From: a virus | Taxonomy: Duplodnaviria; Heunggongvirae; Uroviricota; Caudoviricetes | Direction: 5' to 3' (one strand) | Virus record (IMG/VR): IMGVR_UViG_3300042892_001069 | DNA: 64,000 nt | In this document: piece by piece, positions 12,263-32,297 of the stretch | Layout: every line of letters begins with the position of its first letter | Position numbering within the stretch: position 1 is the stretch's first letter | Made by a program: the position numbers and the translations under genes | The notes under the pieces: generated by a model | The model's input: only the letters and a program-made list of their open reading frames with translations | What the model was told of the DNA's origin: nothing | Databases searched by the model: none

Positions 12263-12263
12263 A

Positions 12264-15189: not shown

Positions 15190-15238
15190 TTTACATTTCC
15201 TTAAAGTTTGCGGGGTTAAAAATTTACTTTATGTAGCT

Positions 15239-15267
15239 ATTATACAGCTACCCCGAGGAAGTGTCAA
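15239..15267 (-). promoter_or_regulatory. sigma70 promoter TTGACA-17-TATAAT
   Basis: Perfect consensus upstream of the MoxR gene; the -10 box is flanked by the inverted repeat GTAGCT/AGCTAC. Confidence 0.85.
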
Positions 15268-15671
15268 GTGTTATTTTCAGAATCTATTTCTTTTTGTCGC
15301 TCATTCATAGCTTTAATTAAGCCAAACTTTCTAATGTCGTCGGAAAACAACATTAGCTCAAAACTCTTTTTTTCCGAAAAAACAGTAATGCTTTGATTAG
15401 TTAACAGATATGGACAGTCAATATATCTTTCCAAAAAGATAATTGTTTGGGGACTAAGTTCAATTGGCTCAGTAAATGGAATTTCATATTCCTTCAATTC
15501 CAATTCGCCCGTCAAAAACATATACCCTTCTTCACTAAGGCGAAAGGCAGTTTGTTTGTTTACTCGATTTGATTGCCACCATTTATGTGAATATAGATTT
15601 ACATTAGTTTCATCTACACTCTTACCCCACTGTTGTAGGAATATTTTAGTTAGCAAATCTCTAGTTATCAT
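15264..15671 (-). CDS. hypothetical protein
   Basis: 135-aa ORF, ATGA-coupled. Confidence 0.6.
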   Translation of the reverse strand: MITRDLLTKIFLQQWGKSVDETNVNLYSHKWWQSNRVNKQTAFRLSEEGYMFLTGELELKEYEIPFTEPIELSPQTIIFLERYIDCPYLLTNQSITVFSEKKSFELMLFSDDIRKFGLIKAMNERQKEIDSENNT

Positions 15672-15952
15672 TTTACAATGGTGCCAGATGTTAACTTAAC
15701 AACTTGGAAATTTTCAGTACCAAATGTTAGATTTAATTTCTTAGCAAGATTTACAGCGTGGCCGGGATTAGAGAAGCTAGTCTTTTTATATTTAGGACCT
15801 GGATAACTTGTGAGGCTGTTAAATGACTTTAAATTAAAAGGTTCATTTTTATAGAAGACCGCCCAAATGGCTTCAGCTTCTAAAACTTGTTCAGCTTTAT
15901 AAGTTTTTTTATTTGTGTACTCTAATAGTACTTTAGGTTTTGGTCGACTCAT
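15668..15952 (-). CDS. hypothetical basic protein
   Basis: Start MSRPKPK with GAGG RBS; ATAAATA at 15982-15988 upstream. Confidence 0.65.
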   Translation of the reverse strand: MSRPKPKVLLEYTNKKTYKAEQVLEAEAIWAVFYKNEPFNLKSFNSLTSYPGPKYKKTSFSNPGHAVNLAKKLNLTFGTENFQVVKLTSGTIVK

Positions 15953-15990
15953 TATATGCATACCTCAGTAATATACGCATATATTTATCC

Positions 15991-16239
15991 TTATTTAGGA
16001 AGTTCAAACCCACCACCGTCCATCTCTACAGATACAATTTCAGTATCTACACTACGTTTAAGAGCATTAAACATGATTTCGTAGTCTTGATTTATTTTAT
16101 CCATCATTTCAGCAAGTGCTAAACTAAGCATCCTAGCCTGTGGTAAAGACATTTTAACTTCTTTACTTTGAGATTGTTCTGCGCTTCTAACCTGCTGTAC
16201 AAATTGTGTAATAGGACTTAGATTAATCTGATTTTGCAT
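15991..16239 (-). CDS. hypothetical protein
   Basis: 82-aa ORF overlapping the upstream gene. Confidence 0.55.
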   Translation of the reverse strand: MQNQINLSPITQFVQQVRSAEQSQSKEVKMSLPQARMLSLALAEMMDKINQDYEIMFNALKRSVDTEIVSVEMDGGGFELPK

Positions 16240-16702
16240 TTGACAGTACCTGTTTCATTTCAATTTCTGATTTAAATGGACCTTTGTATGGATACCGCTC
16301 AACAGTAATTGCTTTGGGACAAAAACTTTTAACCCAGCCTTTATCAAATTTGATTACATAGTAGCCGGCACAATACAAACTTTTACTAGCGTTTGATTTA
16401 GTAAACAACGGCAGTTTACGTCTTACATCATACATGCTGTTGTACGGATTACAGCTGGTTGGATAATTGTGACATTCGTGAGGAGCAGAATGTGTTACTT
16501 TAACTTTGGTGCTAGTTAAAAAAAACTCTTCTCCAAACTGTTTAGTTAGGTCTTGTTTTTTATTAAACATAACTTCACCCTTAGTGCTACTTAAAACAAA
16601 TTTATTGTTTTCTTTTTTATGTAGGGTAGCAATCTTAGTACCGTCTTGTTCTACAATCCAAAATTTACCATCTACAATAGGCTTTGCGTGTATCTCTGTC
16701 AT
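16223..16702 (-). CDS. hypothetical protein
   Basis: 159-aa ORF in the minus-strand operon. Confidence 0.65.
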   Translation of the reverse strand: MTEIHAKPIVDGKFWIVEQDGTKIATLHKKENNKFVLSSTKGEVMFNKKQDLTKQFGEEFFLTSTKVKVTHSAPHECHNYPTSCNPYNSMYDVRRKLPLFTKSNASKSLYCAGYYVIKFDKGWVKSFCPKAITVERYPYKGPFKSEIEMKQVLSNAKSD

Positions 16703-16851
16703 TTTTTAAACCATCCTTTAATTGTTTGTAACAAATTATAATATCTAAAATGATAATTTGTTAGCACGGGTTGATGATGCGGACACCGACCTTGCCGCCA
16801 GTCGCAATCTGCTTTAATTTCTTTGTAACAAACTGCACATTTTTGTCTCAT
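16699..16851 (-). CDS. 50-aa Cys/His-rich small protein (not in ORF track)
   Basis: Translated by hand: MRQKCAVCYKEIKADCDWRQGRCPHHQPVLTNYHFRYYNLLQTIKGWFKK; ATGA overlaps at both ends fill the gap exactly. Confidence 0.7.
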   Translation of the reverse strand: MRQKCAVCYKEIKADCDWRQGRCPHHQPVLTNYHFRYYNLLQTIKGWFKK

Positions 16852-17870
16852 TTGCTTTCCTCTGTAAGTTTACGCCACGTAACTGCTTGTTCAGAAAATC
16901 TTGCCTGAAATGGTTCCGCATATGATTGTATATTATCGGCAATCTTTTTCATATCGTAACTATTACAGAACTTTAGCATACGTATACCTACTTGCGTAAT
17001 GTCTTTAGGAACAGCATACGTATCGATAGTTTCTTTAATTAATGCTTTAATGTTGTCCGGTTGTGCTGTTAAATCACATAACTGTACATTACGTTGATAG
17101 TCTTCTAGTACACGATGTTCTTGTCCATTGTGGTCGGACCATCTCTGCAACATGAGATTGTTCCACGCATATCCTTTGCTAGTACGATCCTCAAATGCTT
17201 CAGTAAGTCCAACTTTATTCTTTGTACCTTTAACCCGCACTCCTGGATACGCACTAAAGACATTGTCACTAGTGTCGCCACGCATACATTTTTCAAACAA
17301 TAGCCATTCTGGATTTGGAACTTCTTTAGGCTCTTTTGTCTTTTTATCTATAACAAGTTTACCTTTTTTATCAAATATGCCATTAATAGTGTGAGTCTCT
17401 TCAGCAACACCGTTATACTGTTTTACATTGCTTGCTAGTAGTTGATAAAAGTCTCTATCAGTGCTAATGATCACATGCTCTGCCATCGGGTGAGCTTGTA
17501 TAAAGCCCGCAATCAAATCATCAGCTTCTAATTGATTATGCTGGAGTACAGTACAGTTAGTTTTTTCTGTAATAAAATTCTTAAACTCATCAAAGGCTTC
17601 CCAAAAGATCTTTTCTTCTTCTGCTTCTTTTACTGTATGTGCAGCACGAGCTTCTGCCCGATTAGCTTTATACGGGGCATAAAAGTCCTTACGCCAGCTA
17701 CGACCTTCGAGGCAGAATACTACATGAGTACCACCAAAATCTTGCCATGCTTTTTTAATACTGTTAAAGGTAATATGAAAAGCCATGCCAAGTTTAATCT
17801 CAGCATTGCCTTGTACTACGTGTCTAGCACGAAAAAATGTGTTAGCAGTATCAACTAAAATATATGTCAT
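16848..17870 (-). CDS. rnh: T4 RNase H-like 5'-3' exonuclease/flap endonuclease
   Basis: YILVDTAN..FRA, EADDLIA, STDRDFYQL and GDTSDNV acidic motifs. Confidence 0.88.
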   Translation of the reverse strand: MTYILVDTANTFFRARHVVQGNAEIKLGMAFHITFNSIKKAWQDFGGTHVVFCLEGRSWRKDFYAPYKANRAEARAAHTVKEAEEEKIFWEAFDEFKNFITEKTNCTVLQHNQLEADDLIAGFIQAHPMAEHVIISTDRDFYQLLASNVKQYNGVAEETHTINGIFDKKGKLVIDKKTKEPKEVPNPEWLLFEKCMRGDTSDNVFSAYPGVRVKGTKNKVGLTEAFEDRTSKGYAWNNLMLQRWSDHNGQEHRVLEDYQRNVQLCDLTAQPDNIKALIKETIDTYAVPKDITQVGIRMLKFCNSYDMKKIADNIQSYAEPFQARFSEQAVTWRKLTEESK

Positions 17871-18277
17871 TCTATTTGTGCTCTATTATTACCAAGTCTT
17901 GTTACATTAACATAACCGGCAGTTCTATCTTTAGATTCCATGCCTTCGCCTTGAATCATAGAACTATACAAATCTCTAAACCACCGATCTACAATTTGTT
18001 CATCTGGATCGCCGTCAAAACCGTATCCAGCTTGTTTCAATTGTACTATAAACAAGTCATTCCAGTCAAGCTCAAAAAAGCCATTTCTTGGATTATCTTT
18101 ATTAACTTTAGTATCTAAGACACTAACCCACGGCTCTCCACGAGCTGTAGCACGTTCTTTTGGCAACATCTTAGCAATAAGTTCTTCTTCTTTAGCTTTA
18201 GTAGTTTCTAACTGTGCTTGTTCTTTTTCGGCAAGTAATTTATCAATGCCAAATAGTTTTCTAATAAATTGTTTCAT
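17867..18277 (-). CDS. hypothetical protein
   Basis: Start MKQFIRK coupled (TAATG) to the queE stop. Confidence 0.6.
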   Translation of the reverse strand: MKQFIRKLFGIDKLLAEKEQAQLETTKAKEEELIAKMLPKERATARGEPWVSVLDTKVNKDNPRNGFFELDWNDLFIVQLKQAGYGFDGDPDEQIVDRWFRDLYSSMIQGEGMESKDRTAGYVNVTRLGNNRAQIE

Positions 18278-19131
18278 TAAGTTCCCCACTCATTTTTAAA
18301 TAGTGGCACTTGTAGTCTGTCACTATATCGTAAGCCATGTTTCATAGCCAATAATGCTACATTTTTATTATTCATTGCGTAGACACTTTCTACCCCGCCT
18401 ACTGGCATTAGATAAACATGTCCTTTAAAGCCAGCTTTTCGGAATTCAATAATTGCGTTTTGAGCATCGTTAAAGTCTTGTTCAGTGGCAATGACAAATT
18501 TCAAATATGCTGTGCCCACTTCTTCGTATTCACAAACTACTTCTGGAAGGATTGCTTCTTCCCACTTTTCTCCACTACATGGCAGTTTAGCACTTACACT
18601 AAATGTAAGTTCTCTGCCTACTACACTATTCCACTTTTTTAGGAATCCTTTAAACTCTGGAGTAAGTTTTTGAGTACCATTTGTTTCAAAAGTAATTTCT
18701 TTCAAATCACGCATCTTAGTATTGCTAATCAAGTCCGGATACGCACGTTGCCAACCTAGCAACGGTTCGCCACCTGTAATAACAAGATGTTCATATTCCC
18801 AATGATCCTGCGGAAGAATTTCCATAATACGATCGACAATAGCTTCGCTTGTAAGCATAGGCGATAAATCTTTAAAGTCTGGATGCCAACTGGCATAACT
18901 GTCACAGCCTGTACTGACTAACGGCAAGTCTTCATATTTTGTAAAAGGTGTAATCATAGTATGGGTTGCCGCAATATCAATTGCTTCGTGGCTCATTTCA
19001 CCGCGAGGCATACCAAAGCCACTACATTTAAAGTTACAGCCAAATGTGCGTAGAAATACAGACGGTACACCCATGTAGCGTCCTTCACCTTGGATGCTGT
19101 AAAACAGTTCCGCAATTTTAATTTTTGACAT
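18277..19131 (-). CDS. queE: 7-carboxy-7-deazaguanine synthase (radical SAM)
   Basis: ELFYSIQGEG...VFLRTFGCNFKC...GCDS, VITGGEPLL, FETNGT, SVSAKL, YSDRLQ. Confidence 0.9.
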   Translation of the reverse strand: MSKIKIAELFYSIQGEGRYMGVPSVFLRTFGCNFKCSGFGMPRGEMSHEAIDIAATHTMITPFTKYEDLPLVSTGCDSYASWHPDFKDLSPMLTSEAIVDRIMEILPQDHWEYEHLVITGGEPLLGWQRAYPDLISNTKMRDLKEITFETNGTQKLTPEFKGFLKKWNSVVGRELTFSVSAKLPCSGEKWEEAILPEVVCEYEEVGTAYLKFVIATEQDFNDAQNAIIEFRKAGFKGHVYLMPVGGVESVYAMNNKNVALLAMKHGLRYSDRLQVPLFKNEWGT

Positions 19132-19459
19132 GTTCTTTCCTAAATTCTTCTACATCACTAATTGCTAATTTTAATGTTTCTGCGTAGTTAAACGCACCTT
19201 GTTTTTTTAAACAAACAGTTGACTCTGTATCAATGTAGCCTTTAGCTAGTAAAGTCCATATATGATACCAACGTGTTTTAGACCAAAAGTTAGTCTTAGT
19301 TGTAGTATAGATGGTAACTGAAATGTCGTGGTCATCAGCTTCTACCCATACGTTGTGTTCGTGACCACTATCTCCACACTCGCATGTAACACGATATACT
19401 TTTGAGTCGCCCCAATCGTTATGTTTTAAGATACCCTCGGCCGGTAGTTGATAATTCAT
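19118..19459 (-). CDS. hypothetical protein with CxC...H motif
   Basis: Start MNYQLP, ATGA-coupled; VTCECGDSGHEH. Confidence 0.55.
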   Translation of the reverse strand: MNYQLPAEGILKHNDWGDSKVYRVTCECGDSGHEHNVWVEADDHDISVTIYTTTKTNFWSKTRWYHIWTLLAKGYIDTESTVCLKKQGAFNYAETLKLAISDVEEFRKEHVKN

Positions 19460-19674
19460 TCTACGTCCTCTCCAAACCATTCATCAACCATTTGTTCTGC
19501 TTCGGCTTGTGTAAGTGCCGGCACAAAAATTCTAGCATTTTGCCCAACAGTATGTTGAATATTAAATTTTACAACTCCTGCCGGAATACCGTTAAATTCA
19601 CGTTCTACAATAAATTCTTGTAAATTCTTTGCTCTATGAATTAGTTGAGCAGTTAAATCTTTTGCAGTTGTCAT
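19456..19674 (-). CDS. hypothetical protein
   Basis: Coupled to the folE stop. Confidence 0.55.
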   Translation of the reverse strand: MTTAKDLTAQLIHRAKNLQEFIVEREFNGIPAGVVKFNIQHTVGQNARIFVPALTQAEAEQMVDEWFGEDVE

Positions 19675-20369
19675 CTTGAATACTCCTGTTGTAGTTTAAT
19701 ATTATCAAAGAATTCTTTCTTTGTGCCCTGGTCGGTATTAAAGGAACCACGAAGAACTGTAGTTTGTGTTAAACTACTATGCGCCATAATACCTCTATTC
19801 TCACAACATCCGTGAGTTGCTTGTATATAGACAGCTACATTATCACTATCAGTTGCTTTTTGAATTTCTCTAGCAATATCGTTACACAGTTCTTCTTGTA
19901 AAGTACCACGACGAGCGCACCACTGTGCTATTCGAGTGTATTTGCTTAATCCAATTAATTTATTAGCGGCAATGATTCCGATATAAGCAACGCCAGACAC
20001 AGGCTGGTGATGATGACTACACATACTACGAAGCTCACTTCTAACCACAAGCATACCTTCATAGCGGTCCGATGAATCATTTGGAAAAGCTGTTGCGTCT
20101 GGTGGTGTTTCATATCTACCTGCCATTATTTCGTTAAAATACATTTTAGCAAGCCTGCGGGCTGTACCTTTACTGTTTGGATCGTTTTCTCGATCAATAA
20201 GCAACGTATCTAGCACATGTTCAAATGCTTCGGTTGCTTCATTAATAAGTTGTTCTTTGTATTCATCGCGAATGTATTCGCTAATGTTATCACCGGCCCA
20301 AAATCGTTTGTTATCAGACTTCATGGTCTGGCGAAGGGCTTGTGCTAAATTTTTACTTGTGTCTGACAT
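19671..20369 (-). CDS. folE: GTP cyclohydrolase I
   Basis: DPNSKGTARRLAK, SMCSHHHQP, IGLSKYTR, LQEEL, HGCCENRG, TTVLRG. Confidence 0.95.
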   Translation of the reverse strand: MSDTSKNLAQALRQTMKSDNKRFWAGDNISEYIRDEYKEQLINEATEAFEHVLDTLLIDRENDPNSKGTARRLAKMYFNEIMAGRYETPPDATAFPNDSSDRYEGMLVVRSELRSMCSHHHQPVSGVAYIGIIAANKLIGLSKYTRIAQWCARRGTLQEELCNDIAREIQKATDSDNVAVYIQATHGCCENRGIMAHSSLTQTTVLRGSFNTDQGTKKEFFDNIKLQQEYSR

Positions 20370-20419
20370 TTAATCTCCGATGTTAAGGCAGTGGATTGCC
20401 ATATGTGTATTATACAATC

Positions 20420-20644
20420 TTATTTAGGTTGTTGTATATCTTTTTGAATACTTTGTATTCTAGCTTGCCTACACGCTTCTCGCATTTCTGTAGTAAAGTC
20501 TGGACTTATTTCCGAAATACTACAATTGATCCAAACTCCGTCGGATTTTTTTGGTAGTGTTAAAAACATTATTGGTATAACTATTAAAAACACAATAATA
20601 CCTACTGCTATTTTTATATTTTCTCGCTTAGTAATATTTGACAT
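20420..20644 (-). CDS. small membrane protein
   Basis: One N-terminal hydrophobic helix followed by a two-Cys soluble part. Confidence 0.55.
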   Translation of the reverse strand: MSNITKRENIKIAVGIIVFLIVIPIMFLTLPKKSDGVWINCSISEISPDFTTEMREACRQARIQSIQKDIQQPK

Positions 20645-20871
20645 AAATCAGCATCTCTCTTTGATTTGAAATAAAATTCTAGTTTTTCGTCACTTGGGTG
20701 ACTAGTAAATTTGCCGCCGGGTAATCCAAATACTTCTAACACATCTATACATGCTTCATTCCACCAATAGTTGGCTTGTCCTTTCCAAGGAATTGCCACA
20801 ACATATTGATATCCTTCGTCACGGGCCGGAATTCGGCTGTCCCAGTTAGCATGTTTCTTACTTCCTCGCAT
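20614..20871 (-). CDS. hypothetical protein
   Basis: Likely start MRGSKK; overlaps the HIT gene end. Confidence 0.5.
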   Translation of the reverse strand: MRGSKKHANWDSRIPARDEGYQYVVAIPWKGQANYWWNEACIDVLEVFGLPGGKFTSHPSDEKLEFYFKSKRDADLCQILLSEKI

Positions 20872-21232
20872 AATTGCCTTTTTCTGGAATAACATGCCGA
20901 ACGCCGCCACGGGGATCTTCCATATCTCCCTTGCGTCGAGGAATCATATGTACATGTGGATACATTACTGTTTGGCCAGCCGCTTCTCCAACGTTTTGTC
21001 CAACGTTAAATGCGTCCCATCGGTTTGATTCAATGCCGTCGAACCCAAATTTGTAAGCGGCCTTATAACATTCCCAAAGGTTAGGCCCGCTAGTACTAGT
21101 AGGTACAAATAACAAATGACCGGCAGTCACTGGGTACGCATCTTTAAATACCCAAAAGTCTTTTGCTCGGTATTCTATTTCAGTCCACGGTGCCCGACGT
21201 TCGTCAAGGGCTTGTTCTAGATCTGTTCTCAT
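20858..21232 (-). CDS. HIT-family nucleotide hydrolase
   Basis: DAYPVTAGHLLFVP, FNVGQNVGEAAGQTV, YPHVHMIPR (first triad His replaced). Confidence 0.85.
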   Translation of the reverse strand: MRTDLEQALDERRAPWTEIEYRAKDFWVFKDAYPVTAGHLLFVPTSTSGPNLWECYKAAYKFGFDGIESNRWDAFNVGQNVGEAAGQTVMYPHVHMIPRRKGDMEDPRGGVRHVIPEKGNYARK

Positions 21233-21386
21233 CTTCTAAAAATTTAATTTCGTCTTTAATATAATCACGATATTCTGTAAGTACTCCTAATTTCCTGCCA
21301 GAGTCGCCCATTGATCTAAGAGTTTCTAAATCTTGATCTATAATTTTTAGTTTTTCTTTAAGATTTTCTATGGTCAAGTCGCTCAT
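21204..21386 (-). CDS. small coiled-coil hypothetical protein
   Basis: 60-aa coupled ORF. Confidence 0.5.
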   Translation of the reverse strand: MSDLTIENLKEKLKIIDQDLETLRSMGDSGRKLGVLTEYRDYIKDEIKFLEDENRSRTSP

Positions 21387-21580
21387 TTGCTAGTTCCAAA
21401 TCGTAAGCCGCTAGCACTACCTAGCAGAATTGCAAATGCCGCCCAAGTTTCCCAGGTGTATGGAATGTGTAGTATAGGAAATAGTGTGTTTAAACTCCAT
21501 ATACCTAACAGCGGTCCGATAGCAATAGCAAATACTATTAGAATAATACCTAAAATTAATTTAATTAATGCTGAGGTCAT
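21383..21580 (-). CDS. small two-helix membrane protein
   Basis: Start MTSALIK, ATGA-coupled to the PRTase stop; two hydrophobic segments. Confidence 0.6.
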   Translation of the reverse strand: MTSALIKLILGIILIVFAIAIGPLLGIWSLNTLFPILHIPYTWETWAAFAILLGSASGLRFGTSK

Positions 21581-22095
21581 AACCAAAAATCCTCCCAAGG
21601 ATAAACTAACCAACAATCTTCTTCTGCTTTGTTAACTTCCCATACTGTATAGTCAACTTCTTCATTACTGGCCGTATTGGTTGTAAGCGTGGCAAATTTA
21701 ACATTATAACCCCATACAAAGTTCCAACGTTCATCATTTGGTAAACACACTGACTGCCAGTCTTGTTTGATCCAAGCAATAGTAGAACCTTGATCGTTAA
21801 TATCGTCAACAATTAAAATATTTTTACACAAGGGATCGCCGACATTTGCGGCATTATAACCAAATGCGTCTTCAGCCATTCCACAATTAGTAACAGTATC
21901 ACCGCCATCTCGTAGACTTACATCTAATGACTTCATTGGCACATCTAAATATTGACTAAGCAATACGGCAGGAACTAGCCCACCACGAGTAAGACCTACA
22001 ATATAATCAGGGCGCCAGTTGCTATTGTTAATTTGTCTAGCAATGTCCAAACAAGCGCCTTCTACTTGTTGCCAAGTATAATAAACTTTTTTCAT
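21577..22095 (-). CDS. type I phosphoribosyltransferase, xanthine/guanine (Gpt)-like
   Basis: YTWQQV, IVGLTRGGLVPA, PRPP-binding loop ILIVDDINDQGST, WLVYPWE. Confidence 0.85.
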   Translation of the reverse strand: MKKVYYTWQQVEGACLDIARQINNSNWRPDYIVGLTRGGLVPAVLLSQYLDVPMKSLDVSLRDGGDTVTNCGMAEDAFGYNAANVGDPLCKNILIVDDINDQGSTIAWIKQDWQSVCLPNDERWNFVWGYNVKFATLTTNTASNEEVDYTVWEVNKAEEDCWLVYPWEDFWL

Positions 22096-22328
22096 GCTGT
22101 TAAACTGTTCGCTAACGTTTGTAATTCTTCTTTAGTCATAAAGAAATTGTAAGTTTGACTATCGGCAACTTTGCCGTCTTTTAAACTTTCTTGAATAATA
22201 TCAAGACTAAACAGACCTTTAGGACTGAGTACTTCATGTTTTACTGTACGTACACGAAAACCTTCGTTTTCTTTAATTGTCATTTCTTTGCGTGTATGCG
22301 CAACTGATTCATGTAGTTCCATTTTCAT
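22092..22328 (-). CDS. hypothetical protein
   Basis: GGAG RBS before MKMELHE; coupled to the PRTase start. Confidence 0.55.
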   Translation of the reverse strand: MKMELHESVAHTRKEMTIKENEGFRVRTVKHEVLSPKGLFSLDIIQESLKDGKVADSQTYNFFMTKEELQTLANSLTA

Positions 22329-22734
22329 CTCCTTTAATCGCTTCAAATGTTCTATACTTACCCAAAGCTGTGATGTATTCATCATACAACTTCTTTAGCT
22401 TTGGATGTTTAGCTTCTAGTTTAACATCTCGTTCGGGAATAGTCAACACCCGTTCAATTGTGTTTAGCCGTTCTTCTAAGTCTTGCCCGTTAAGGACCAA
22501 GTTACCTTTAATGTCTACTGTTGGAGGATTGGTTTGATTAATTCTGATAGCTTCGTTCGGAACAGTAGTACCAGTAGTCCATGTATTTGTATAGCTTGTA
22601 CCATTACTACCAGAGGACGTTAACAACTGTCCTGCGGTACTGTTAGTAGTGTAAACTTTACCAACAGTCAACGGAGGTATTGCACCATACCCGGGACTAA
22701 CCGTGCTGTTTACGGGTTTCAAGATAGTTGTCAT
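22309..22734 (-). CDS. hypothetical S/T-rich protein
   Basis: Low-complexity N-terminus; C-terminal HPKLKKLYDEY helix resembles that of 23142..23513. Confidence 0.55.
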   Translation of the reverse strand: MTTILKPVNSTVSPGYGAIPPLTVGKVYTTNSTAGQLLTSSGSNGTSYTNTWTTGTTVPNEAIRINQTNPPTVDIKGNLVLNGQDLEERLNTIERVLTIPERDVKLEAKHPKLKKLYDEYITALGKYRTFEAIKGDENGTT

Positions 22735-23182
22735 TATGAATCCATTTGTTATCAACAAGAAATCCCCACTCTCGTTTTTGCGGACCCGGCATAAACAATG
22801 TCCAAGCAGTTACCCCTTCTTTTAATTCAATCCGGTGATAGCTGTTTGGATTACACACTCGGAAATGACCAGGCGCTCGCCAATATTTAATTTCGTTAAC
22901 CTTTTCGCCAATTGTGTTAAACACAGGAACCCATTCATAATAGCCACCACTTAATATTAATGTAGCATACGGCCACGGATGATCATGGACGTCATCGGGA
23001 TCACCTTTTAGGAATTTATGAAGGAATACATTAAATGGAAAACGTTTACGATCTTTAAGAAACAAGTAGTATCGTTCTAAGTATGGCTCGTTACATATCC
23101 TATCCATAATGACAAGTTTACGGCCTCGTTTATCTAGCCAGTTAAGGCTTAGCTCTTTTATCTTTTGGAGTATCATAATCAT
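22697..23182 (-). CDS. cupin-fold protein
   Basis: Cupin metal motifs LHKF...HDHPW...GGYYE and YHRIEL...WTLF. Confidence 0.75.
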   Translation of the reverse strand: MIMILQKIKELSLNWLDKRGRKLVIMDRICNEPYLERYYLFLKDRKRFPFNVFLHKFLKGDPDDVHDHPWPYATLILSGGYYEWVPVFNTIGEKVNEIKYWRAPGHFRVCNPNSYHRIELKEGVTAWTLFMPGPQKREWGFLVDNKWIHNDNYLETRKQHG

Positions 23183-23513
23183 CTTTTACAAGTTTATAAA
23201 CAGTTTTAAATTTATCAAACGCTATTCGCAATCCTGGGTATTCTTGACACATCTTTTCTACTCTATCCCACTCAGGAAATGTATTAACCCATTCTTCGGG
23301 CAAACTGATCTTAAACGTATCACATGTTGATATTGATGATATTGATGATATTGATGATATAGTACCTGACCCTATACTAATAGTTGGGGAGGAGTTACTA
23401 TATGAATAACTGGTAGTGTTGGATGGAAAAGTTATAGTTCCAACACTACTAGTTAATGTAATAGTATCATCTAATGTTATCGAGTAAGTGTCTTGCGCTG
23501 AAGAATTGTTCAT
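23142..23513 (-). CDS. hypothetical S/T-rich protein
   Basis: Likely start MNNSS; C-terminal YPGLRIAFDKF helix. Confidence 0.5.
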   Translation of the reverse strand: MNNSSAQDTYSITLDDTITLTSSVGTITFPSNTTSYSYSNSSPTISIGSGTISSISSISSISTCDTFKISLPEEWVNTFPEWDRVEKMCQEYPGLRIAFDKFKTVYKLVKDDYDTPKDKRAKP

Positions 23514-24564
23514 GTAATGCCTCCACTTGTTTTTGTATTTGTGGCAATCTAGTATTATAGTTATCCATGTGTTGAATAATAGCAAAACACAAATTTGAAC
23601 GCCATATTTTGTATGCTTCAAAATTTTCAGTCCACGCACTAGGATACTTAAATGTATCAAATGCCATCTCACTGTAACTGAGTCTATCTGGTACCAATGG
23701 GATAGCATCTACCACTGCACCCTCATACCAACTAATGCCTAGAGTTTCTTGTAGGTTAGCACTGAAGACCATCTTAGCTTGACCTAGTAATGTATGATAC
23801 TCATGCTTAGTAAGTTGCGTATCTTGACAAACAACAAACTCATATTGCGGCAGATGTTTAGCCAAGTCTCTAAAAATTTCAACTTGTTTCTCTGGAGCAA
23901 TACGGTGCGGAAACAAGATCATGTCTCGTTTCTTCATGCCTTTATAAGGAGCAAGTGTATCTTGGAAATACTCCATAGGCCAACCGGTACGTACGATCTT
24001 TGGTTCTTCACCTTTTAAGATTTCGTCAAGGTGCTCACTAAACCAAGGATTTTCTGTAGGATAATCATTTAGTAAATTTGTATAGAACATTTTAATATGG
24101 AAATCTGTGGCAAAGTAGTTGTGGTCAAATGCGTGAAAGAAACTCTTCTCAGCATTTCTAACCCAAGGCTTGTTGCCAACAAGACGACCTAAGAAGTCTT
24201 GCGGATCATAACTGCCAGCATGCCATAAGCCGTGTGTTGTTACTGGAATGCCCAGCAGTTCACTCATGTACTTTAAGTTTATGATACCAGGATGCCAAGC
24301 ATCAGTAAAGATAAAGTGATCGCCGGGATGAACGGATCCGTTACAAAATAACCGACCCATCTGTTCAACTTGACTAGCCTTGTAGATATTAGTGCCGCCA
24401 AAGTTGAGAAATGCCCCAGGAGTGGTAGCACTAGGAATGTCCGTAGGACCTGATATAATGTTGACATGGTGTCCAGCCTTTATAAGTAACTCCGGTACAT
24501 GAGTCTTCCACTGACCTGTGTACCGGGTGTCTACTGCTTCTAAATCAACGAGGAAAACAGTCAT
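23467..24564 (-). CDS. GT-B fold glycosyltransferase (GT4-like)
   Basis: FPHRIAPEKQ and ETLGISWYEG...PLVPDR match the GT-B C-terminal motifs (R...K; E-x7-E). Confidence 0.75.
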   Translation of the reverse strand: MTVFLVDLEAVDTRYTGQWKTHVPELLIKAGHHVNIISGPTDIPSATTPGAFLNFGGTNIYKASQVEQMGRLFCNGSVHPGDHFIFTDAWHPGIINLKYMSELLGIPVTTHGLWHAGSYDPQDFLGRLVGNKPWVRNAEKSFFHAFDHNYFATDFHIKMFYTNLLNDYPTENPWFSEHLDEILKGEEPKIVRTGWPMEYFQDTLAPYKGMKKRDMILFPHRIAPEKQVEIFRDLAKHLPQYEFVVCQDTQLTKHEYHTLLGQAKMVFSANLQETLGISWYEGAVVDAIPLVPDRLSYSEMAFDTFKYPSAWTENFEAYKIWRSNLCFAIIQHMDNYNTRLPQIQKQVEALHEQFFSARHLLDNIR

Positions 24565-24821
24565 TAACTTTCTTGTCTGTTATATGCTGGGCGCGGATTT
24601 TTGCCCAAATACGGCTTACGTTCACCATTCCAAGGCTTACGTGGGCGTGTGCTACGTTCATAAGATTGCCAAACCTTTGCACCTCTATTATAAAGATCTG
24701 CCTCGTTAAACGGCAACATCTCAATGCGACAGAAATCTAACAATTTTTCAAGATCATCAAAGATCCGAACAACGTCAGGGCGATTTTCAAAATATGCGTA
24801 GTCTTTGTAATTCTTAGCCAT
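24564..24821 (-). CDS. hypothetical protein
   Basis: 85-aa ORF, TAATG-coupled. Confidence 0.55.
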   Translation of the reverse strand: MAKNYKDYAYFENRPDVVRIFDDLEKLLDFCRIEMLPFNEADLYNRGAKVWQSYERSTRPRKPWNGERKPYLGKNPRPAYNRQES

Positions 24822-24836
24822 AATAGCCTCTTCTAG

Positions 24837-25226
24837 TTAGTACTTAATAAATGAACCATTTTCTCCGTCTTCGGAGACCTCAATCCAAACCTCACGGCCC
24901 GGATACTTATTGGAGATAGTGTCATACAAATCACCTGACATCATCTCACAACTTTTGTAGTCTAGTTGGAGTGTACCTTCTGCGTACAGTTTTTCCAACC
25001 AGCGTTTAAACTGAATGAATTCGATATCTCGATCATCGTGTGTAACACCAATCCAAACTTTAAAGTGGAAGATGTGACGATGCGGATAGCCTAGGAAACT
25101 TACGTCATACTCATCACCTGTGGCAAGTGTGGGATCTGTAAGTGCGGCTGGATATTTGTGGATGCCTTCTTTGCGAAAGGTTACCCAAATCATTTTGTTT
25201 GGTCTAATGTCTTGTCGAATATTCAT
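24837..25226 (-). CDS. QueD-like T-fold protein (LxxxHRHxF variant)
   Basis: LGYPHRHIFHF, DRDIEFIQFK, SCEM, EVSEDGENG; lacks the canonical QueD CxxxHGH; start MNIRQ is ATGA-coupled. Confidence 0.8.
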   Translation of the reverse strand: MNIRQDIRPNKMIWVTFRKEGIHKYPAALTDPTLATGDEYDVSFLGYPHRHIFHFKVWIGVTHDDRDIEFIQFKRWLEKLYAEGTLQLDYKSCEMMSGDLYDTISNKYPGREVWIEVSEDGENGSFIKY

Positions 25227-25459
25227 GTGATGATTAATCCTGATATATAAATTGCAGTTAAAATTGTATTTAGAGCTACTAGACTCCACCTCTTCCATAA
25301 CACACACATGATAGCTATTCCGCCGTTACCAACGATGAAGAACCATTTGTTAAGCGGGTATATGTCATATGCTGTTAGTACGGCTCCAACTACAACAATG
25401 CTTGGGAATATCCACTCCCAAATAATACTAGTATGTTGAGTATCTTGTTTGATAATCAT
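25223..25459 (-). CDS. small three-helix membrane protein
   Basis: Three hydrophobic segments, with a GAVLTAYDIYPLN motif. Confidence 0.6.
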   Translation of the reverse strand: MIIKQDTQHTSIIWEWIFPSIVVVGAVLTAYDIYPLNKWFFIVGNGGIAIMCVLWKRWSLVALNTILTAIYISGLIIT

Positions 25460-25980
25460 TTTAATATTTTATCGTTTTTGTAGGCTGTCCAGGGTGTGAA
25501 CTTGCTACGGTCTTTGAGAGTGTGTAGACTATGTGACCACACACCGGGATTAGTAGCGTTAAAATCTTTGTCATCAATTTTAAGCATTGTATTATAATTC
25601 CACAATTTAATATATGGAATTGGAACTCTTATCTGCGGAATAAAGTTGTTATGCTCATTCAATCCACCGTCATTAAATTCTTCTACTGCGCTTAGTGGAA
25701 TATCAAGACTACATAGGTAGCCTTCGCCTAGGAAATACTCAATCATATCTTCCCAACGTTTCCAGCCAGTATAGTCGTTAAATGCGGGATTAAAACTGTG
25801 GTTAGCACCAAAGAAGATATGCTCACAATCATTACCGATAGCATGAAAAGCAATTTGATCAATTTCTTGAACTCCAGTAACAAATAGAGTTTTTAATCCG
25901 TAAGCAGGTGTATGTTCAATTTCAGTGCCAATAAAAAATGAAACTGTTTCGCTTACACCTGTAGTATAATCACGCTTCAT
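25456..25980 (-). CDS. hypothetical protein in deazaguanine locus
   Basis: Start MKRDYTTG; GTEIEHTPAYGLKTLFV, HIFFGANHSF, GVWSH. Confidence 0.65.
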   Translation of the reverse strand: MKRDYTTGVSETVSFFIGTEIEHTPAYGLKTLFVTGVQEIDQIAFHAIGNDCEHIFFGANHSFNPAFNDYTGWKRWEDMIEYFLGEGYLCSLDIPLSAVEEFNDGGLNEHNNFIPQIRVPIPYIKLWNYNTMLKIDDKDFNATNPGVWSHSLHTLKDRSKFTPWTAYKNDKILK

Positions 25981-26215
25981 TCTTTTTACCTTCTTCGTAT
26001 TTTTTAACCATTCGAAATACATCTTCCATTCGTTCAGCAAATATATCCGGACTAGTCTGCGCAGTTTTACTCATATCGTATTCACTAGGGTAGTGACGCA
26101 GGCAACTTCTAGCTCGGTCTTTAATTGCTTTTGGAACTCGCGGAGTAGTTAGAATCTCTAGTAGAAACCTTTGAGTCTGAACTACTGCTCGATATCTTTC
26201 GTCTGGTAATGTCAT
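25970..26215 (-). CDS. hypothetical protein
   Basis: MTLPDERYRAV...LRHYP; coupled to the TGT-like gene. Confidence 0.6.
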   Translation of the reverse strand: MTLPDERYRAVVQTQRFLLEILTTPRVPKAIKDRARSCLRHYPSEYDMSKTAQTSPDIFAERMEDVFRMVKKYEEGKKNEA

Positions 26216-27849
26216 TTTACTATTGCTTCTAGTTCGTCAAGTTTATTAATTGCGGATTCGTTAAATTCGCTATCTTCTATTGATTGTACAGTATCAGGTG
26301 TCACTTCGTCAAACAGATTGGCAAATGACGTACTAGCATTAACAGTTTTCTTGCCACTAGCACCGCGAGTACCAATAATATCCATCCAATACTTATTATA
26401 TTCTTCAACTAGTTGATCTGCTCGTCCTCGATCACTTGTTTCAAATATAGCATTAACAATGTCTTTGAAAAACATATGTTCGTATTGCTTAGACGATTTT
26501 CTATTAGCGTCTAACACACTCATCATAGCAGGCATGTTACCAGCATCGTACTGGCGATTAGCTTCTTGAACTGCGTTAACGTGCATCCAAACATTATGGC
26601 CCATCATTACAGCATAGCTAAATGAATCCCAACTTGTTTTGTTACTAACTTTGCCCAACTTATTAAGATCTGGGGTTTTAATCCAATCGGCCGGATTCAT
26701 TGGATCTGGATTTATAACTCCCGGTTTAGGAGTACCTGCTCCGTAGATACAAATTTCTTTCATAGTAACTTGATCTATGATTGGACTTGATTCAAACAAT
26801 TTAAAGATATTGTCTTGTATTACAGCGTCTTTGAACAATCGGGTGTCTGTTGCGTATTTTTTGTCGTCCGCAGAAGACTGCATACGGTAGACCCATTTCT
26901 TTCTATCTTCGGTTTCTGTATTGATGTAGATCTGTCCATTTGCGGTGGCAAGGAACGGACTTGCGCAGTCAAAAGAGATGGTAAATTGCTCATTATGATA
27001 TTTCCTTACAGCACGTTGAATGTCAGTGAGCAGTACAGCCCACTCCAATTTTGATGTTCCTAAGAAGTGCATCCAATCTTGTTCACCCTTCTCAAGTAAC
27101 CCATCAAATCTTAATGCCACAAGGCGTTTTAACACCAAGTGTACGTCACACATATTTTGTCCACCCATACCCCAACCGTTAAAGTGACGGTCGCCGTATT
27201 GTTTGGGATCACAGTATTTTTTCATACGCTGATACCAATCCTCGGCATCGGCGTGATTTTCACCCTGCAGCACATTTAAAAATTTACAATTACCATTTCT
27301 ATTATTAACAAAATAATCATTGTTAATATATGTGCCTTGAACTGCTTCCATGTATGTACTGATACCAGTTGCCGCAACCCCAGCAGGGCTACGAGCAACC
27401 CATGCCGGAATATCAAGCCCCATACCGTAGTCCATTAGTGTGTCCATCCAAGTAAGTACTTGTTGGCGCTTCTTCATAGCCTTTGGACAATTAGGATCTT
27501 TCCAATCAGCTGGCCAAACACCTTTACCAATTTGGAATCCGCCAGAGTCACCTAACACCCAACTTGTAGATCTATTACGATTGCGAAACATGTCTTCGCT
27601 TTCGTCTTGTTTATTTAAATCAAGATTAGCGTGACCTGCTGAATACAAGCAATGATCGTAATAAAATGCGCCCTTGTCTGGTTCAAGATAGTTAAGACTT
27701 TCGATACCATTGGCAAAACTTGCCGGAATGCGAGCAGGGTCTACATAATTACTATATCGTTGCTTACCGATAAACGTAGAATAGAATCCTGACGTAGCTG
27801 GTAAGAAGTACGCATAGTCATTTTGCGTTGCTGTTAGATTCTTATTCAA
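26212..27849 (-). CDS. TGT/DpdA-like base-exchange transglycosylase
   Basis: TGT-family motifs LGDSGGFQ, GLDIP, NVLQG, GWGMGG, MHFLG, SFDCASP, GHN; no CxCxxC zinc motif; TTG start. Confidence 0.8.
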   Translation of the reverse strand: MNKNLTATQNDYAYFLPATSGFYSTFIGKQRYSNYVDPARIPASFANGIESLNYLEPDKGAFYYDHCLYSAGHANLDLNKQDESEDMFRNRNRSTSWVLGDSGGFQIGKGVWPADWKDPNCPKAMKKRQQVLTWMDTLMDYGMGLDIPAWVARSPAGVAATGISTYMEAVQGTYINNDYFVNNRNGNCKFLNVLQGENHADAEDWYQRMKKYCDPKQYGDRHFNGWGMGGQNMCDVHLVLKRLVALRFDGLLEKGEQDWMHFLGTSKLEWAVLLTDIQRAVRKYHNEQFTISFDCASPFLATANGQIYINTETEDRKKWVYRMQSSADDKKYATDTRLFKDAVIQDNIFKLFESSPIIDQVTMKEICIYGAGTPKPGVINPDPMNPADWIKTPDLNKLGKVSNKTSWDSFSYAVMMGHNVWMHVNAVQEANRQYDAGNMPAMMSVLDANRKSSKQYEHMFFKDIVNAIFETSDRGRADQLVEEYNKYWMDIIGTRGASGKKTVNASTSFANLFDEVTPDTVQSIEDSEFNESAINKLDELEAIVK

Positions 27850-28045
27850 TTCGACCCCATTTAATTTTTAACCATATTCTTTCATGAATATAATAATCTA
27901 CACTTAAGAGAATATGTAGTGCTGTGGCAAAGCCTGTAGCACTACTAATATCTCCAGTAAACAAGTATGTCCATAGAATAGTAAACAACCATGCTGTCAC
28001 ACGGTATGTTAACATTCTTACTACGGTTCTTTTCTTAGTTTCCAT
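27842..28045 (-). CDS. small membrane protein (DUF2061-like)
   Basis: K.T...TYR at the N-terminus, YYIHERIW at the C-terminus, two hydrophobic helices. Confidence 0.6.
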   Translation of the reverse strand: METKKRTVVRMLTYRVTAWLFTILWTYLFTGDISSATGFATALHILLSVDYYIHERIWLKIKWGRIE

Positions 28046-28776
28046 TACTTAGATTGTGCTGGAAGAATATAATTGTATTCAGCAAGACCGCTGTCAACTG
28101 TAATTTGTAGTGCGCCTTGATCAGTAATCTTCATAGTAATGTCACCACTTAGATTTAAAATACTCATCATTTGATTAACAGGCCATGACCATGCTTGTTT
28201 TAATTTACCAGTAATACCTGCTTGGAAAATAAATGATCCAGCGTGTGTGCTAGCATCACCAAAGCTAAACACTAGATTATCGTCTTTAGTTGTTATTTGA
28301 AATACAGTTTCTTCAGTATGGGCTTGTGCTTGGAACTTCAAACGTTGAATACTTGCAACGCTTGGTTGGAATTCAATATCCCATGAAGAACCTTTGTATT
28401 TTACAGACTTAAGACGTTCGTTAATAATGTCTTGATTCATAAACCGATAGTCATTTTCAAAGTCGTTAGCCGCATTAACAAAGTGTAATCCTGTTGGAAT
28501 TTCTTCACCGTTGCGTTGTTGTTTAACTACACTGATTTGTGCGTTCTCTTTGTATTCTGGACACTTGAGGTGAATATCCAACTTGTTCAAGTTAGGCATA
28601 CCAAACGTACCTTCAAAGTCGCCAACTGGTTTGTGTGTCTTGGCATTAACAATAACTGAACGATCCTCTGCCATCGATTCAATTTTTGTTTCTGTGTCAG
28701 TAGCACTAATTTTCACTAATGGCAAAAAGCCAAGTGAATGTGTATGCGCTACTAGGTCTTGTAAAAAGTCTTTCAT
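28045..28776 (-). CDS. putative DNA sliding clamp
   Basis: 243 aa (clamp-subunit size), beta-rich, two genes from polB; PolB ends in a clamp-binding-like SLFEF motif; an RFC-like loader is in the window. Confidence 0.55.
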   Translation of the reverse strand: MKDFLQDLVAHTHSLGFLPLVKISATDTETKIESMAEDRSVIVNAKTHKPVGDFEGTFGMPNLNKLDIHLKCPEYKENAQISVVKQQRNGEEIPTGLHFVNAANDFENDYRFMNQDIINERLKSVKYKGSSWDIEFQPSVASIQRLKFQAQAHTEETVFQITTKDDNLVFSFGDASTHAGSFIFQAGITGKLKQAWSWPVNQMMSILNLSGDITMKITDQGALQITVDSGLAEYNYILPAQSK

Positions 28777-28797
28777 ATTGATTCTCCGTGTTTATCT

Positions 28798-28826
28798 ATT
28801 ATATTTAGGTTTGTGACAAAAGTCAA
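28798..28826 (-). promoter_or_regulatory. composite promoter: TTGACT-17-TATAAT with overlapping CTAAATA late motif
   Basis: Minus strand reads TTGACT TTTGTCACAAACCTAAA TATAAT. Confidence 0.75.
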
Positions 28827-29596
28827 GCATTTTTTCGTATTTGATGATTGTATTTCACCGTTTCTTCAACTAATGTAATTGGCGACCCAATTGTGTTAGC
28901 CCATTGTATAAATGCTTCAGTGTCTTTGGGGAAACAATGACCTCCCCAACCACGTTCTCCATCTGGCCCAGGAACAACTGTATGTCCAGCACCAATCCGT
29001 TGATCGTTAGCCAATATGTGTCTAACAATTTCATAATCCATTCCTGTCTTTTCACAAATATCATTTATTTGATTAAAGAAACTTGTTTTAAGAGCAAGGA
29101 ATGAATTAGTTGAGTATTTGACTAAACATGCTTCTTTAGCAGAGCAGTTAAACACTAGTTTACAGTGTGGTAGTGTTGTCTGGAATAGTTCTTGCCAGAA
29201 ATATTCAGGATCCTCACCACCTAACACAATATACTTTTGATTTAAGAAATCATCATTGGCACTTCTTGCTTTTAAAAATTCTGGACTATATGTTATAGCA
29301 AGAGTTGAGTACACTTGTTCAAAACCGTCAGCAATGCCGGGAGTCACTGTACTTTTAATTAGTACTGGCATGAATATCGGCACTTGATCTAGTATGCTAG
29401 CAATTATGCTAGCATCGCAAATTCCATTTTCAGTAGTTGGGGTCGGCGCACATATAATCAATCCGTCAGCATCGTGATGATCTTTAATTTGATCTTCAGA
29501 ATACTTTGGATCAACAATAATAATTTCGTGTTGATTTTTAAAAGCATTGTATACTGCTTTACCAACAAATCCATATCCGGCAATAATTATTTTCAT
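28823..29596 (-). CDS. ugd: UDP-glucose/GDP-mannose dehydrogenase family protein lacking the C-terminal domain
   Basis: AGYGFVG, ICAPTP, IKSTV, SPEFL, KYSTN, DQRIG and catalytic GGHCFPKD; the protein ends soon after. Confidence 0.85.
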   Translation of the reverse strand: MKIIIAGYGFVGKAVYNAFKNQHEIIIVDPKYSEDQIKDHHDADGLIICAPTPTTENGICDASIIASILDQVPIFMPVLIKSTVTPGIADGFEQVYSTLAITYSPEFLKARSANDDFLNQKYIVLGGEDPEYFWQELFQTTLPHCKLVFNCSAKEACLVKYSTNSFLALKTSFFNQINDICEKTGMDYEIVRHILANDQRIGAGHTVVPGPDGERGWGGHCFPKDTEAFIQWANTIGSPITLVEETVKYNHQIRKNA

Positions 29597-29597
29597 A

Positions 29598-32267: not shown

Positions 32268-32279
32268 TAGTTCTCCATA

Positions 32280-32297
32280 TGTCATTTAGGGCTGACA
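32280..32297 (-). promoter_or_regulatory. putative translational operator hairpin of polB
   Basis: TGTCA-GCCCTAAA-TGACA (5-bp stem, 8-nt loop) 3 nt upstream of the GGAG RBS. Confidence 0.45.

Follow-up and report, generated by a model that had tools for sequence, protein, structure and literature searches.

What might explain why a jumbo phage carries, beside its DNA polymerase gene, most of a 7-deazaguanine pathway, a transglycosylase and a glycosyltransferase, with no QueC found nearby? The locus lies in a 64,000-nucleotide stretch of DNA, here called the window, from a tailed virus of the Caudoviricetes (IMG/VR record IMGVR_UViG_3300042892_001069). A preliminary description, made from the letters of the window alone, had placed queE, folE, a QueD-like gene and a gene resembling tRNA-guanine transglycosylase (TGT) and DpdA on one strand running into clamp and polB genes, and had read them as a QueC-less deazaguanine DNA-modification locus. 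All of these genes are present on the minus strand, in a co-directional block (18277-29608) flanked by a 5'-3' exonuclease gene (16848-17870) and by the gene for the family B DNA polymerase PolB (29598-32285, also minus strand; PF00136 4.8e-37, PF03104 3.9e-19). The reading itself is supported, in that FolE, QueE, DpdL and DpdA were identified and QueC was absent from the window. On balance, we favor the view that this is a DpdL-type module of an uncultured jumbo phage, equipped with a GT4-type glycosyltransferase whose most likely role would be to glycosylate deazaguanine.

Counted from PolB, the minus-strand genes of the block encode a nucleotide-sugar dehydrogenase, a clamp-like protein, a small DUF2061 protein, a 545-aa TGT-like protein, an 81-aa protein, the protein that we call X194, a 78-aa membrane protein, DpdL, an 85-aa protein, the glycosyltransferase (365 aa), a cupin, a phosphoribosyltransferase (PRTase), a HIT-family protein, FolE, a 120-aa CxC protein and QueE. 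When the locus was compared by megablast with 50,697 phage records, nothing matched. The PolB is nearest to those of Sinorhizobium phage Phosso (48% identity) and Agrobacterium phage Atu_ph07 (45%), followed by other jumbo phages, and relatives are encoded in at least 598 IMG/VR stretches, on contigs of up to 353 kb. The source is an abundant, uncultured jumbo-phage lineage. Eighty of these related loci were fetched, many of them cut by contig ends, so the counts drawn from them are lower bounds: DpdL was found in 76, X194 in 75, the 85-aa gene in 72, DpdA in 69 and the 120-aa CxC gene in 26. QueE stays beside the locus in the relatives.

A probable deazaguanine pathway without QueC

DpdL was described as a QueD paralog in which the CxxxHGH motif has become LxxxHRHxF (Cui, Hutinet et al., NAR 2023, PMC10516641). 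It occurs in phages that encode FolE, QueD, QueE and a DpdA but not QueC, and was proposed to decarboxylate 7-carboxy-7-deazaguanine (CDG) to 7-deazaguanine; Cellulophaga phage phiST has DpdL, and 2'-deoxy-7-deazaguanosine (dDG) replaces all of its dG (PMC10516641). The QueD-like T-fold paralog of the window (24837-25226, minus strand) reads LGYPHRHIF and fits this signature. Residues L45, H49, H51 and F53 are invariant across 12 aligned sequences, which include the motif-bearing genes, presumed to be DpdL, of phiST and of Acidovorax phage ACP17, and tblastn with the window protein reached ACP17 at 5e-40 and phiST at 9e-8. Two further enzymes of the pathway are encoded on the same strand: FolE, a GTP cyclohydrolase I (19671-20369; PF01227 1.9e-40, NF006824 4e-42), and a QueE-like radical-SAM enzyme, 7-carboxy-7-deazaguanine synthase (18277-19131; phrog_2076 2e-50, and TIGR03365 1e-17, which is below the cut-off of that model).

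Tblastn of the 64-kb window with QueC, QueF, YhhQ, the QueC-linked amidotransferase Gat and phage QueD queries gave no match. QueC (PF06508) was likewise not found in the complete genomes of the Pseudomonas jumbo phage PA5oct (Wroclawvirus), ACP17, Phosso and phiST. In Vibrio phage 2.275.O, whose DpdA is related, QueC and QueF are both encoded, and neither DpdL nor the glycosyltransferase has a detectable homolog. The earlier statement that the window holds no queC, queF or canonical queD thus stands as a description of the 64 kb, but a lack of QueD would probably be a misreading caused by the window's edge, for relatives carry QueD about 50 kb from the glycosyltransferase. A PTPS/QueD protein above the Pfam cut-off was found in 6 of 10 partial or complete IMG/VR relatives, 45-55 kb from the glycosyltransferase where the distance was worked out, on the side that corresponds to positions beyond 64000 of the window. 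Its motif is CxxxHGY, a variant common to phiST, ACP17, Phosso, one of the two PA5oct copies and the window's relatives, in which a second zinc histidine is also a tyrosine. Because phiST, ACP17, Phosso and PA5oct have the same variant, CxxxHGY is, as far as these alignments tell, the normal QueD of DpdL phages. In two of the relatives, the CxxxHGY QueD gene is immediately followed by one whose sequence, taken alone, suggests 3-deoxy-8-phosphooctulonate synthase (KdsA); if so, a Kdo sugar-acid step would be encoded there too. The 120-aa CxC protein (19118-19480, minus strand), whose gene overlaps the start of queE and adjoins it in most of the 26 loci where it was detected, was considered as a divergent QueD and rejected: it belongs to no known family, has 302 clusters of relatives, keeps only the CxC (C33 and C35) invariant, and has no PTPS, Pfam or PDB profile match.

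In the route that we propose, FolE, then a CxxxHGY QueD whose gene would lie past the end of the window, and then QueE would turn GTP into CDG, which DpdL would decarboxylate to 7-deazaguanine. A decarboxylated CDG derivative had been among the products suggested in the preliminary description, and by way of the published DpdL/dDG route it has become the best prediction (PMC10516641).

How would the base reach DNA? Every phage known to have 7-deazaguanines in its DNA encodes a DpdA (Cui et al., PMC10516641). The 545-aa DpdA-like protein of the window (26212-27849, minus strand) has no sequence match in Pfam, NCBIfam or the PDB, even when searched as a 31-sequence profile. Its AlphaFold2 (AF2) model, with a predicted local distance difference test (pLDDT) score of 81, drew 170 matches from the PDB at E <= 0.001; the 50 listed are without exception tRNA-guanine transglycosylases, with probability 1.00, so that kinship to TGT is visible only by fold search. 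Three aspartates are invariant in the 31 DpdA-like sequences, D101 (in GDSGGFQ), D146 and D294 (in FDC), which we take to be the general acid/base, the base-recognising aspartate and the nucleophile, respectively, of bacterial TGT. A CxCxxC zinc motif was not seen among the invariant residues of the same alignment.

Among phage records, BLAST-level relatives of this DpdA are confined to the PA5oct-like phages, Phosso and Vibrio phage 2.275.O, and tblastn gave no match to phiST or ACP17. DSGG, LLG and (F/Y)D motifs align between the window protein and the 424-aa transglycosylase-like gene of ACP17, a presumed DpdA3; hhalign with the corresponding gene of Xanthomonas phage X1 was not significant. 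The window DpdA may form a separate subfamily with those of PA5oct, Phosso and Vibrio phage 2.275.O, or may belong to DpdA3. Across the 80 loci, two allelic classes of DpdA can be told apart, at 59-95% and 38-42% identity to the window protein, while the neighbouring glycosyltransferase stays at 77-87%, a contrast that may reflect diversifying or swapping pressure on the transglycosylase.

The whole set closely resembles that of phiST, which also has FolE, a CxxxHGY QueD, QueE, an LxxxHRHxF DpdL and a transglycosylase of the TGT superfamily, no QueC, and these genes beside replication genes. The phiST DpdL is 31% identical to that of the window, but the phiST DpdA3 has 259 aa and no BLAST similarity to the 545-aa DpdA, and phiST is without the GT4 glycosyltransferase, X194 and the nucleotide-sugar dehydrogenase. 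We consider it very likely that the locus directs a DpdL-type exchange of deazaguanine into DNA. The TGT-fold DpdA would swap guanine for 7-deazaguanine in the phage DNA after replication, and the exchanged base would shield G-containing sites from restriction enzymes.

The glycosyltransferase and its partners

The glycosyltransferase (23467-24564, minus strand) is GT4-like, with a predicted GT-B fold and an EX7E motif. In 19 sequences from four lineages, PA5oct, ACP17 and Phosso among them, the two glutamates of E273-x7-E281 and the residues R221 and K226 are invariant. We take EX7E to be the C-terminal GT4 motif, and R221 and K226 to be the basic residues that bind the diphosphate. Because all of them are kept in every lineage, the enzyme is probably active. 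The window protein itself has no Pfam match; within the 19 homologs PF00534 was found in 4, at best at 2.5e-4, and PF20706 in 1, and the neighbours of the protein in the language-model Atlas carry PF00534 and PF13692 with scores of 0.96-0.99. Against the PDB, the profile of the family gave a sole weak match, to WlaC (6eji, E 0.19). The QTMAN_N domain (PF12038) was not among the Pfam matches of the 19 homologs, and a search for it in PA5oct, ACP17, Phosso, X1 and a 98%-complete relative returned nothing at E <= 1. More than 8000 metagenomic homologs exist, and the best 120 listed are 80-96% identical to the window protein.

A match to the glycosyltransferase was found in 22 phage records, 17 of which carry DpdL, and no close homolog was seen in a phage record without DpdL. 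The other five are distant paralogs of 28% identity in PhiXhv-12-like phages, beside GlmS and a deacetylase. In Xanthomonas phage PhiXhv-12 itself (3669-6903), the paralog comes after genes for GlmS and a GlcNAc-deacetylase-like protein. Deazaguanine genes are lacking in its vicinity, and it may belong to a different sugar-based system.

In six cultured phage lineages the glycosyltransferase gene adjoins DpdA or DpdL; among them are PA5oct, ACP17, Phosso, X1 and BCSR5, in the last of which it is followed by a 446-aa gene that is a putative DpdA by its X1-like position. The order is DpdA-GT-DpdL in PA5oct (GT standing for the glycosyltransferase), DpdL-GT in Phosso, and GT-DpdA-DpdL-QueE in X1. 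In ACP17 it is QueD, FolE, X194 homolog, transglycosylase, GT, DpdL, QueE. Between FolE and the GT-DpdA-DpdL-QueE run of X1 stands a gene of the PAPS-reductase (PP-loop) family (2843-3376), which could encode a further tailoring enzyme. DpdL phages without the glycosyltransferase exist (phiST, RHph_I1_18 and others), so the glycosyltransferase needs the DpdL system, whereas that system can do without the glycosyltransferase.

PA5oct is among the closest known counterparts of the window: PolB, a clamp-like gene, DpdA, GT and DpdL are followed by a PRTase, QueE and the 5'-3' exonuclease, again with no QueC. Identities to the window are 34% for DpdA, 39% for GT, 51% for DpdL and 45% for X194. Unlike the window, PA5oct has no dehydrogenase or HIT gene, its X194 lies about 27 kb from the cluster, and no PA5oct-like phage was among the cupin matches listed. 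Its DNA is resistant to five restriction enzymes whose sites contain G, and END nucleases, which sense modified G, act against the phage; the study does not give the chemistry of the modification (PMC12191111). ACP17, named as a DpdL phage by Cui et al. (PMC10516641), has the tightest module, a single run from QueD to QueE that includes the X194 homolog, GT and the motif-bearing DpdL. It differs from the window in its T4-like backbone, its only remotely related 424-aa transglycosylase, and the lack of a dehydrogenase, PRTase and HIT.

The association is not limited to phages. A scan of prokaryotes, with one genome per species, gave 33 glycosyltransferase loci, some of which are phage contigs binned into metagenome-assembled genomes. 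A DpdA-like gene adjoins the glycosyltransferase in 24 of the 33, and DpdL is also present in 19. Cultured hosts of such loci include Magnetospirillum aberrantis, M. sulfuroxidans, Pelagibacterium mangrovi, P. luteolum, Azospirillum isscasi, Shimia ponticola and Sulfitobacter. On contig00038 of M. aberrantis SpK (2244-12053), genes for an LA2681-type HEPN protein, a sensor kinase and response regulator, and a 519-aa protein with a CoiA nuclease domain precede GT, DpdL and DpdA. The nuclease-domain gene is directly upstream of the GT-DpdL-DpdA triad, and a PTPS gene lies about 400 bp past DpdA. This cassette looks like a candidate modification-restriction island, not a prophage. The preliminary description had made its reading depend on the glycosyltransferase keeping company with the locus, and it does so, both in the 17 phage records with a close homolog, all of which carry DpdL, and in the 24 prokaryote loci with an adjoining DpdA-like gene.

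Could the locus instead encode a plain dDG (or dCDG) system like that of phiST, with the GT4 enzyme and the dehydrogenase acting elsewhere, on virion proteins, the host envelope or another base, and placed here by shared early or middle expression with the replication genes? Such a division of labor would suit the production of dDG by phiST without a glycosyltransferase, the lack of an obvious sugar acceptor on dDG, the optional nature of the dehydrogenase, and the position of the distant PhiXhv-12-type homologs beside GlmS and deacetylase rather than deazaguanine genes. It accounts poorly for a glycosyltransferase that stays by DpdA or DpdL across phage backbones with little else in common, for the same link in bacterial chromosomal cassettes without phage genes in their flanks, and for the restriction of close homologs to phages with DpdL. 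The window also encodes ThyX, and a partial screen detected no pyrimidine hydroxymethylase as an alternative source of an acceptor. We regard this explanation as unlikely, and hold with good confidence that the glycosyltransferase belongs to the deazaguanine module.

Two further proteins accompany the core. X194 (25456-25980, minus strand) is a 174-aa alpha/beta protein of no recognised family that, among the 50,697 phage records, occurs only in PA5oct-like phages and ACP17, which together with the window lineage makes three lineages; across the 80 related loci it is 35-83% identical to the window protein. Its AF2 model is confident (pLDDT 82). Foldseek against the PDB, VIA-align wide and AlphaFold DB clusters returned only weak STAS-like or alpha/beta matches and one unnamed homolog, with structural Z up to 7.8, the range typical of models that have no clear match, and nothing was found for it in Atlas. 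Small genes that precede the glycosyltransferase in X1 and BCSR5 share a GxEVE...TLF...HIY start with X194 but were rejected as its homologs, with hhalign not significant. The 85-aa protein encoded between DpdL and the glycosyltransferase (24564-24821, minus strand) has no Pfam match and no assigned function, and its gene has the same position in every related locus that also has DpdL. A complex prediction of DpdA residues 1-445 with the glycosyltransferase scored 0.00 and gave no answer.

Accessory genes and neighbouring functions

The dehydrogenase, PRTase, HIT and cupin genes that the preliminary description had placed in the locus are all there, but none of them is core: the PRTase and dehydrogenase are accessory, and the cupin and HIT are passengers. 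The dehydrogenase (261 aa; 28823-29608, minus strand; PF00984 5.5e-23, PF03721 4e-11) is a short nucleotide-sugar dehydrogenase of the UDP-glucose/GDP-mannose dehydrogenase family that has the NAD-binding and central domains and the catalytic cysteine in GGHCFPKD, and no C-terminal UDP-binding domain; TIGR03026 matches it at 2e-41 over model positions 72-298 of 413. Among 56 relatives that span both of its positions, 20 have it in the interval that separates PolB from the clamp-like gene and 16 behind the glycosyltransferase, in several cases with no gene in between; the remaining 20 lack it. Most of these proteins have 255-280 aa, and one distant relative encodes a full-length protein of 414 aa directly after the glycosyltransferase. 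No dehydrogenase was found in the 98%-complete relative, nor in PA5oct, ACP17, Phosso or Vibrio phage 2.275.O. With 36 of 56 relatives and none of the four cultured phage genomes searched (three of them with the glycosyltransferase) carrying it, the dehydrogenase was rejected as a core part. It is best seen as an optional helper, and its recurring place by the glycosyltransferase fits a nucleoside diphosphate (NDP)-sugar donor that differs between lineages. Of the earlier idea that the glycosyltransferase and dehydrogenase together add a sugar acid, the tie of the glycosyltransferase to the locus remains; the dehydrogenase is optional, and therefore a sugar acid is at most a lineage variant.

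The PRTase is of the 6-oxopurine (xanthine/guanine) type (21577-22095, minus strand; PF00156 1.2e-15). Its nearest named families are the xanthine PRTase NF006613 (8e-12, below cut-off) and, in the PDB, the purine PRTase 1vdm (1.6e-15). The HIT-family protein (20858-21232, minus strand; PF01230 3e-07) has the motif PHVHMIP. In the five phages that carry the glycosyltransferase (PA5oct, ACP17, Phosso, X1 and BCSR5), HIT was found in none and a PRTase homolog only in PA5oct, beside its queE, and both proteins were rejected as core parts. The 'cysteine dioxygenase-like' cupin (22697-23182, minus strand; phrog_4786 5e-37) was also rejected as a pathway member: its homologs are spread over 103 records of phages of other kinds, chiefly those of mycobacteria and Burkholderia, and the 40 of these listed include no DpdL phage. 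The Gpt-like PRTase would possibly recycle the guanine released by DpdA toward GTP, the pathway's own substrate; a possible alternative role is to make a deazaguanine nucleotide.

That alternative role leads to a second explanation of the locus, in which the PRTase makes the nucleotide of 7-deazaguanine or CDG, PolB incorporates it, and HIT and the glycosyltransferase act on nucleotide intermediates. There is precedent in tubercidin biosynthesis, where the PRTase TubE converts a free deazapurine base to a nucleotide. The presence of a 6-oxopurine PRTase inside the locus, and beside queE in PA5oct, the adjoining protein of a nucleotide-hydrolase family, and the setting amid replisome genes are all consistent with such a pool, as is the detection of the 7-amido-7-deazaguanine (ADG) nucleoside in cells infected with Campylobacter phage CP220, cited by Cui et al. 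(PMC10516641). However, the PRTase and HIT genes are present in only 40 and 34 of the 80 related loci, four of the five phages lack the one and all five the other, and a DpdA that retains its catalytic aspartates is present throughout; recovery of the guanine that DpdA sets free would account for the PRTase equally well. Entry through the nucleotide pool is improbable. Least probable of all is that tRNA is the target or that a free glycosylated deazapurine metabolite like huimycin is made, phage DNA not being modified: the fold is indeed that of tRNA-guanine transglycosylases and huimycin biosynthesis does glycosylate a free 7-deazapurine base with UDP-GlcNAc, but the DpdA gene lies between the clamp-like and pathway genes of a replication module, the DNA of PA5oct, a phage that shares DpdA, GT and DpdL with the window, withstands restriction, DpdA is common to the phages with DNA 7-deazaguanines, and in M. 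aberrantis a nuclease-domain gene stands directly upstream, as in modification-restriction islands.

Several neighbours complete the picture of the region. The clamp-like protein (28045-28776, minus strand) matches phrog_12062, a family of unknown function, and its positional counterpart in Phosso carries a sliding-clamp annotation. Just outside the locus (10687-14013 and 14089-15189, minus strand) are genes for ThyX (PF02511 6.6e-45), a DUF2201 metallopeptidase/VWA-like protein and a MoxR-type AAA ATPase, and farther away (42941-46527, minus strand) a ClpB-type double AAA chaperone of 753 aa is encoded near a 289-aa DnaJ. In the nearest IMG/VR relative, IMGVR_UViG_3300009151_000044, compared with window positions 14089-32606, most flanking genes are 94-100% identical (PolB 97%, clamp-like 98%, DpdA 95%, exonuclease 96%), whereas the genes from X194 to QueE reach only 69-85% (X194 69%, DpdL 77%, GT 80%, FolE 84%, QueE 83%), with the 85-aa gene at 98% amid this diverged stretch. 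Relative to this phage, the modification cassette looks to have been exchanged by recombination.

A possible sugar on deazaguanine

If DpdL and DpdA supply 7-deazaguanine for DNA, what would the glycosyltransferase do? As a GT4 enzyme of the retaining type, it would add a sugar from an NDP-sugar to the deazaguanine, either in DNA or on the free base before insertion, to give glycosylated dDG. X194 would be part of the module in the window lineage and two others, the short dehydrogenase may alter the donor, or the sugar once attached, in some lineages, and the PRTase may recycle guanine freed by DpdA, with the cupin and HIT as passengers. Each chemical step here, and DNA as the target, is predicted from gene content, and the acceptor of the glycosyltransferase is the most conjectural of them. 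That the enzyme puts its sugar on deazaguanine, whether within DNA or ahead of insertion, has in our view somewhat less than an even chance. More tentative again is the fullest form of the proposal, that the window lineage, PA5oct, ACP17, Phosso, X1, BCSR5 and the alphaproteobacterial cassettes all bear a sugar-bearing 7-deazaguanine in their DNA, made by the GT4 enzyme with the help of X194, with the hexose oxidized to a uronic acid after transfer where a dehydrogenase is present; this would be the first glycosylated purine in DNA.

Several points weigh against this proposal, and the main difficulty is chemical. There is no hydroxyl on the base of dDG to take a sugar, which would have to be attached at N2, O6 or a carbon. 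We know of no DNA base with a sugar on N2, O6 or a carbon of deazaguanine. The phage phiST, with DpdL and without the glycosyltransferase, makes plain dDG. The decarboxylase activity of DpdL is itself an unproven proposal, and dDG was not reconstituted in E. coli from the dpdL and dpdA of ACP17 (Cui et al., PMC10516641). An amide route keeps a low likelihood, given a 311-aa PP-loop protein in the 98%-complete relative (994-1926, minus strand of the fetched stretch), which matches only positions 4-68 of QueC, at 25 bits; it is not a full QueC but an ATP-dependent enzyme of the amidation type. As for the enzymes of the window, the DpdA profile does not reach TGT by sequence, and hhalign with the 424-aa ACP17 gene gave a probability of 23% (E 9e-4). 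The assignment to GT4 draws on motifs, weak Pfam matches and language-model neighbours, and should be read as provisional.

Precedents for a sugar on a 7-deazaguanine derivative are nevertheless known, and the earlier view that no glycosylated deazaguanine has been described needs qualification. Mannosyl- and galactosyl-queuosine occur in tRNA. Huimycin and dapiramicin A are sugar-bearing 7-deazapurine natural products, and HuiG uses UDP-GlcNAc on a free 7-deazapurine base (bioRxiv 10.64898/2026.04.15.718813); therefore an N-glycoside is conceivable. In all of these a glycosyltransferase decorates a 7-deazaguanine derivative, as in the product proposed here. Unlike that product, none of them is found in DNA, and their acceptors, the amino group of O-methylated preQ0 and the cyclopentenediol, differ from dDG. 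As far as DNA is concerned, the earlier view holds for these compounds.

The closest analogy within phage DNA is that of T4, whose alpha- and beta-glucosyltransferases glucosylate hydroxymethylcytosine. There, as in our proposal, a phage GT-B enzyme puts the sugar of a UDP-sugar on a non-canonical base in DNA and blocks restriction. The T4 system differs in having a pyrimidine with a hydroxymethyl acceptor, glycosyltransferases of another family, and a base that is built at the nucleotide level rather than brought in by transglycosylase exchange. To our knowledge, the known DNA glycosylations are all on pyrimidines. The known groups on 7-deazaguanine in DNA are cyano, amido, aminomethyl (with methyl and formyl forms), carboxyl, formamidino (archaeosine) and hydrogen.

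How new, then, is the modification? The preliminary description had called it a candidate new DNA hypermodification. The core is of the already published DpdL type, but the GT4 part is undescribed. The main text of Cui et al. does not mention a glycosyltransferase (PMC10516641). A literature search found no paper that links DpdL with a glycosyltransferase, and the papers found on deazaguanine, glycosyltransferases and DpdA, judged mostly by title and abstract, include none on a glycosylated deazaguanine in DNA. The undescribed part is thus the tie of the GT4 enzyme to DpdA and DpdL, from which a sugar on deazaguanine DNA is plausible but unproven.

The tie of a GT4 glycosyltransferase to DpdA and DpdL, in bacterial islands and in phages that are not related to each other, leads us to predict hypermodified purines of a new class. 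It may also explain the absence of dDG when ACP17 dpdL and dpdA were expressed in E. coli: in ACP17 the glycosyltransferase gene lies between those for DpdL and the transglycosylase, and the X194 homolog comes just before. Such a modification would bear on the escape of phages from restriction and CRISPR, and on how modification-sensing nucleases recognize their targets. The module is present in cultured phages and bacteria, so the prediction is directly testable.

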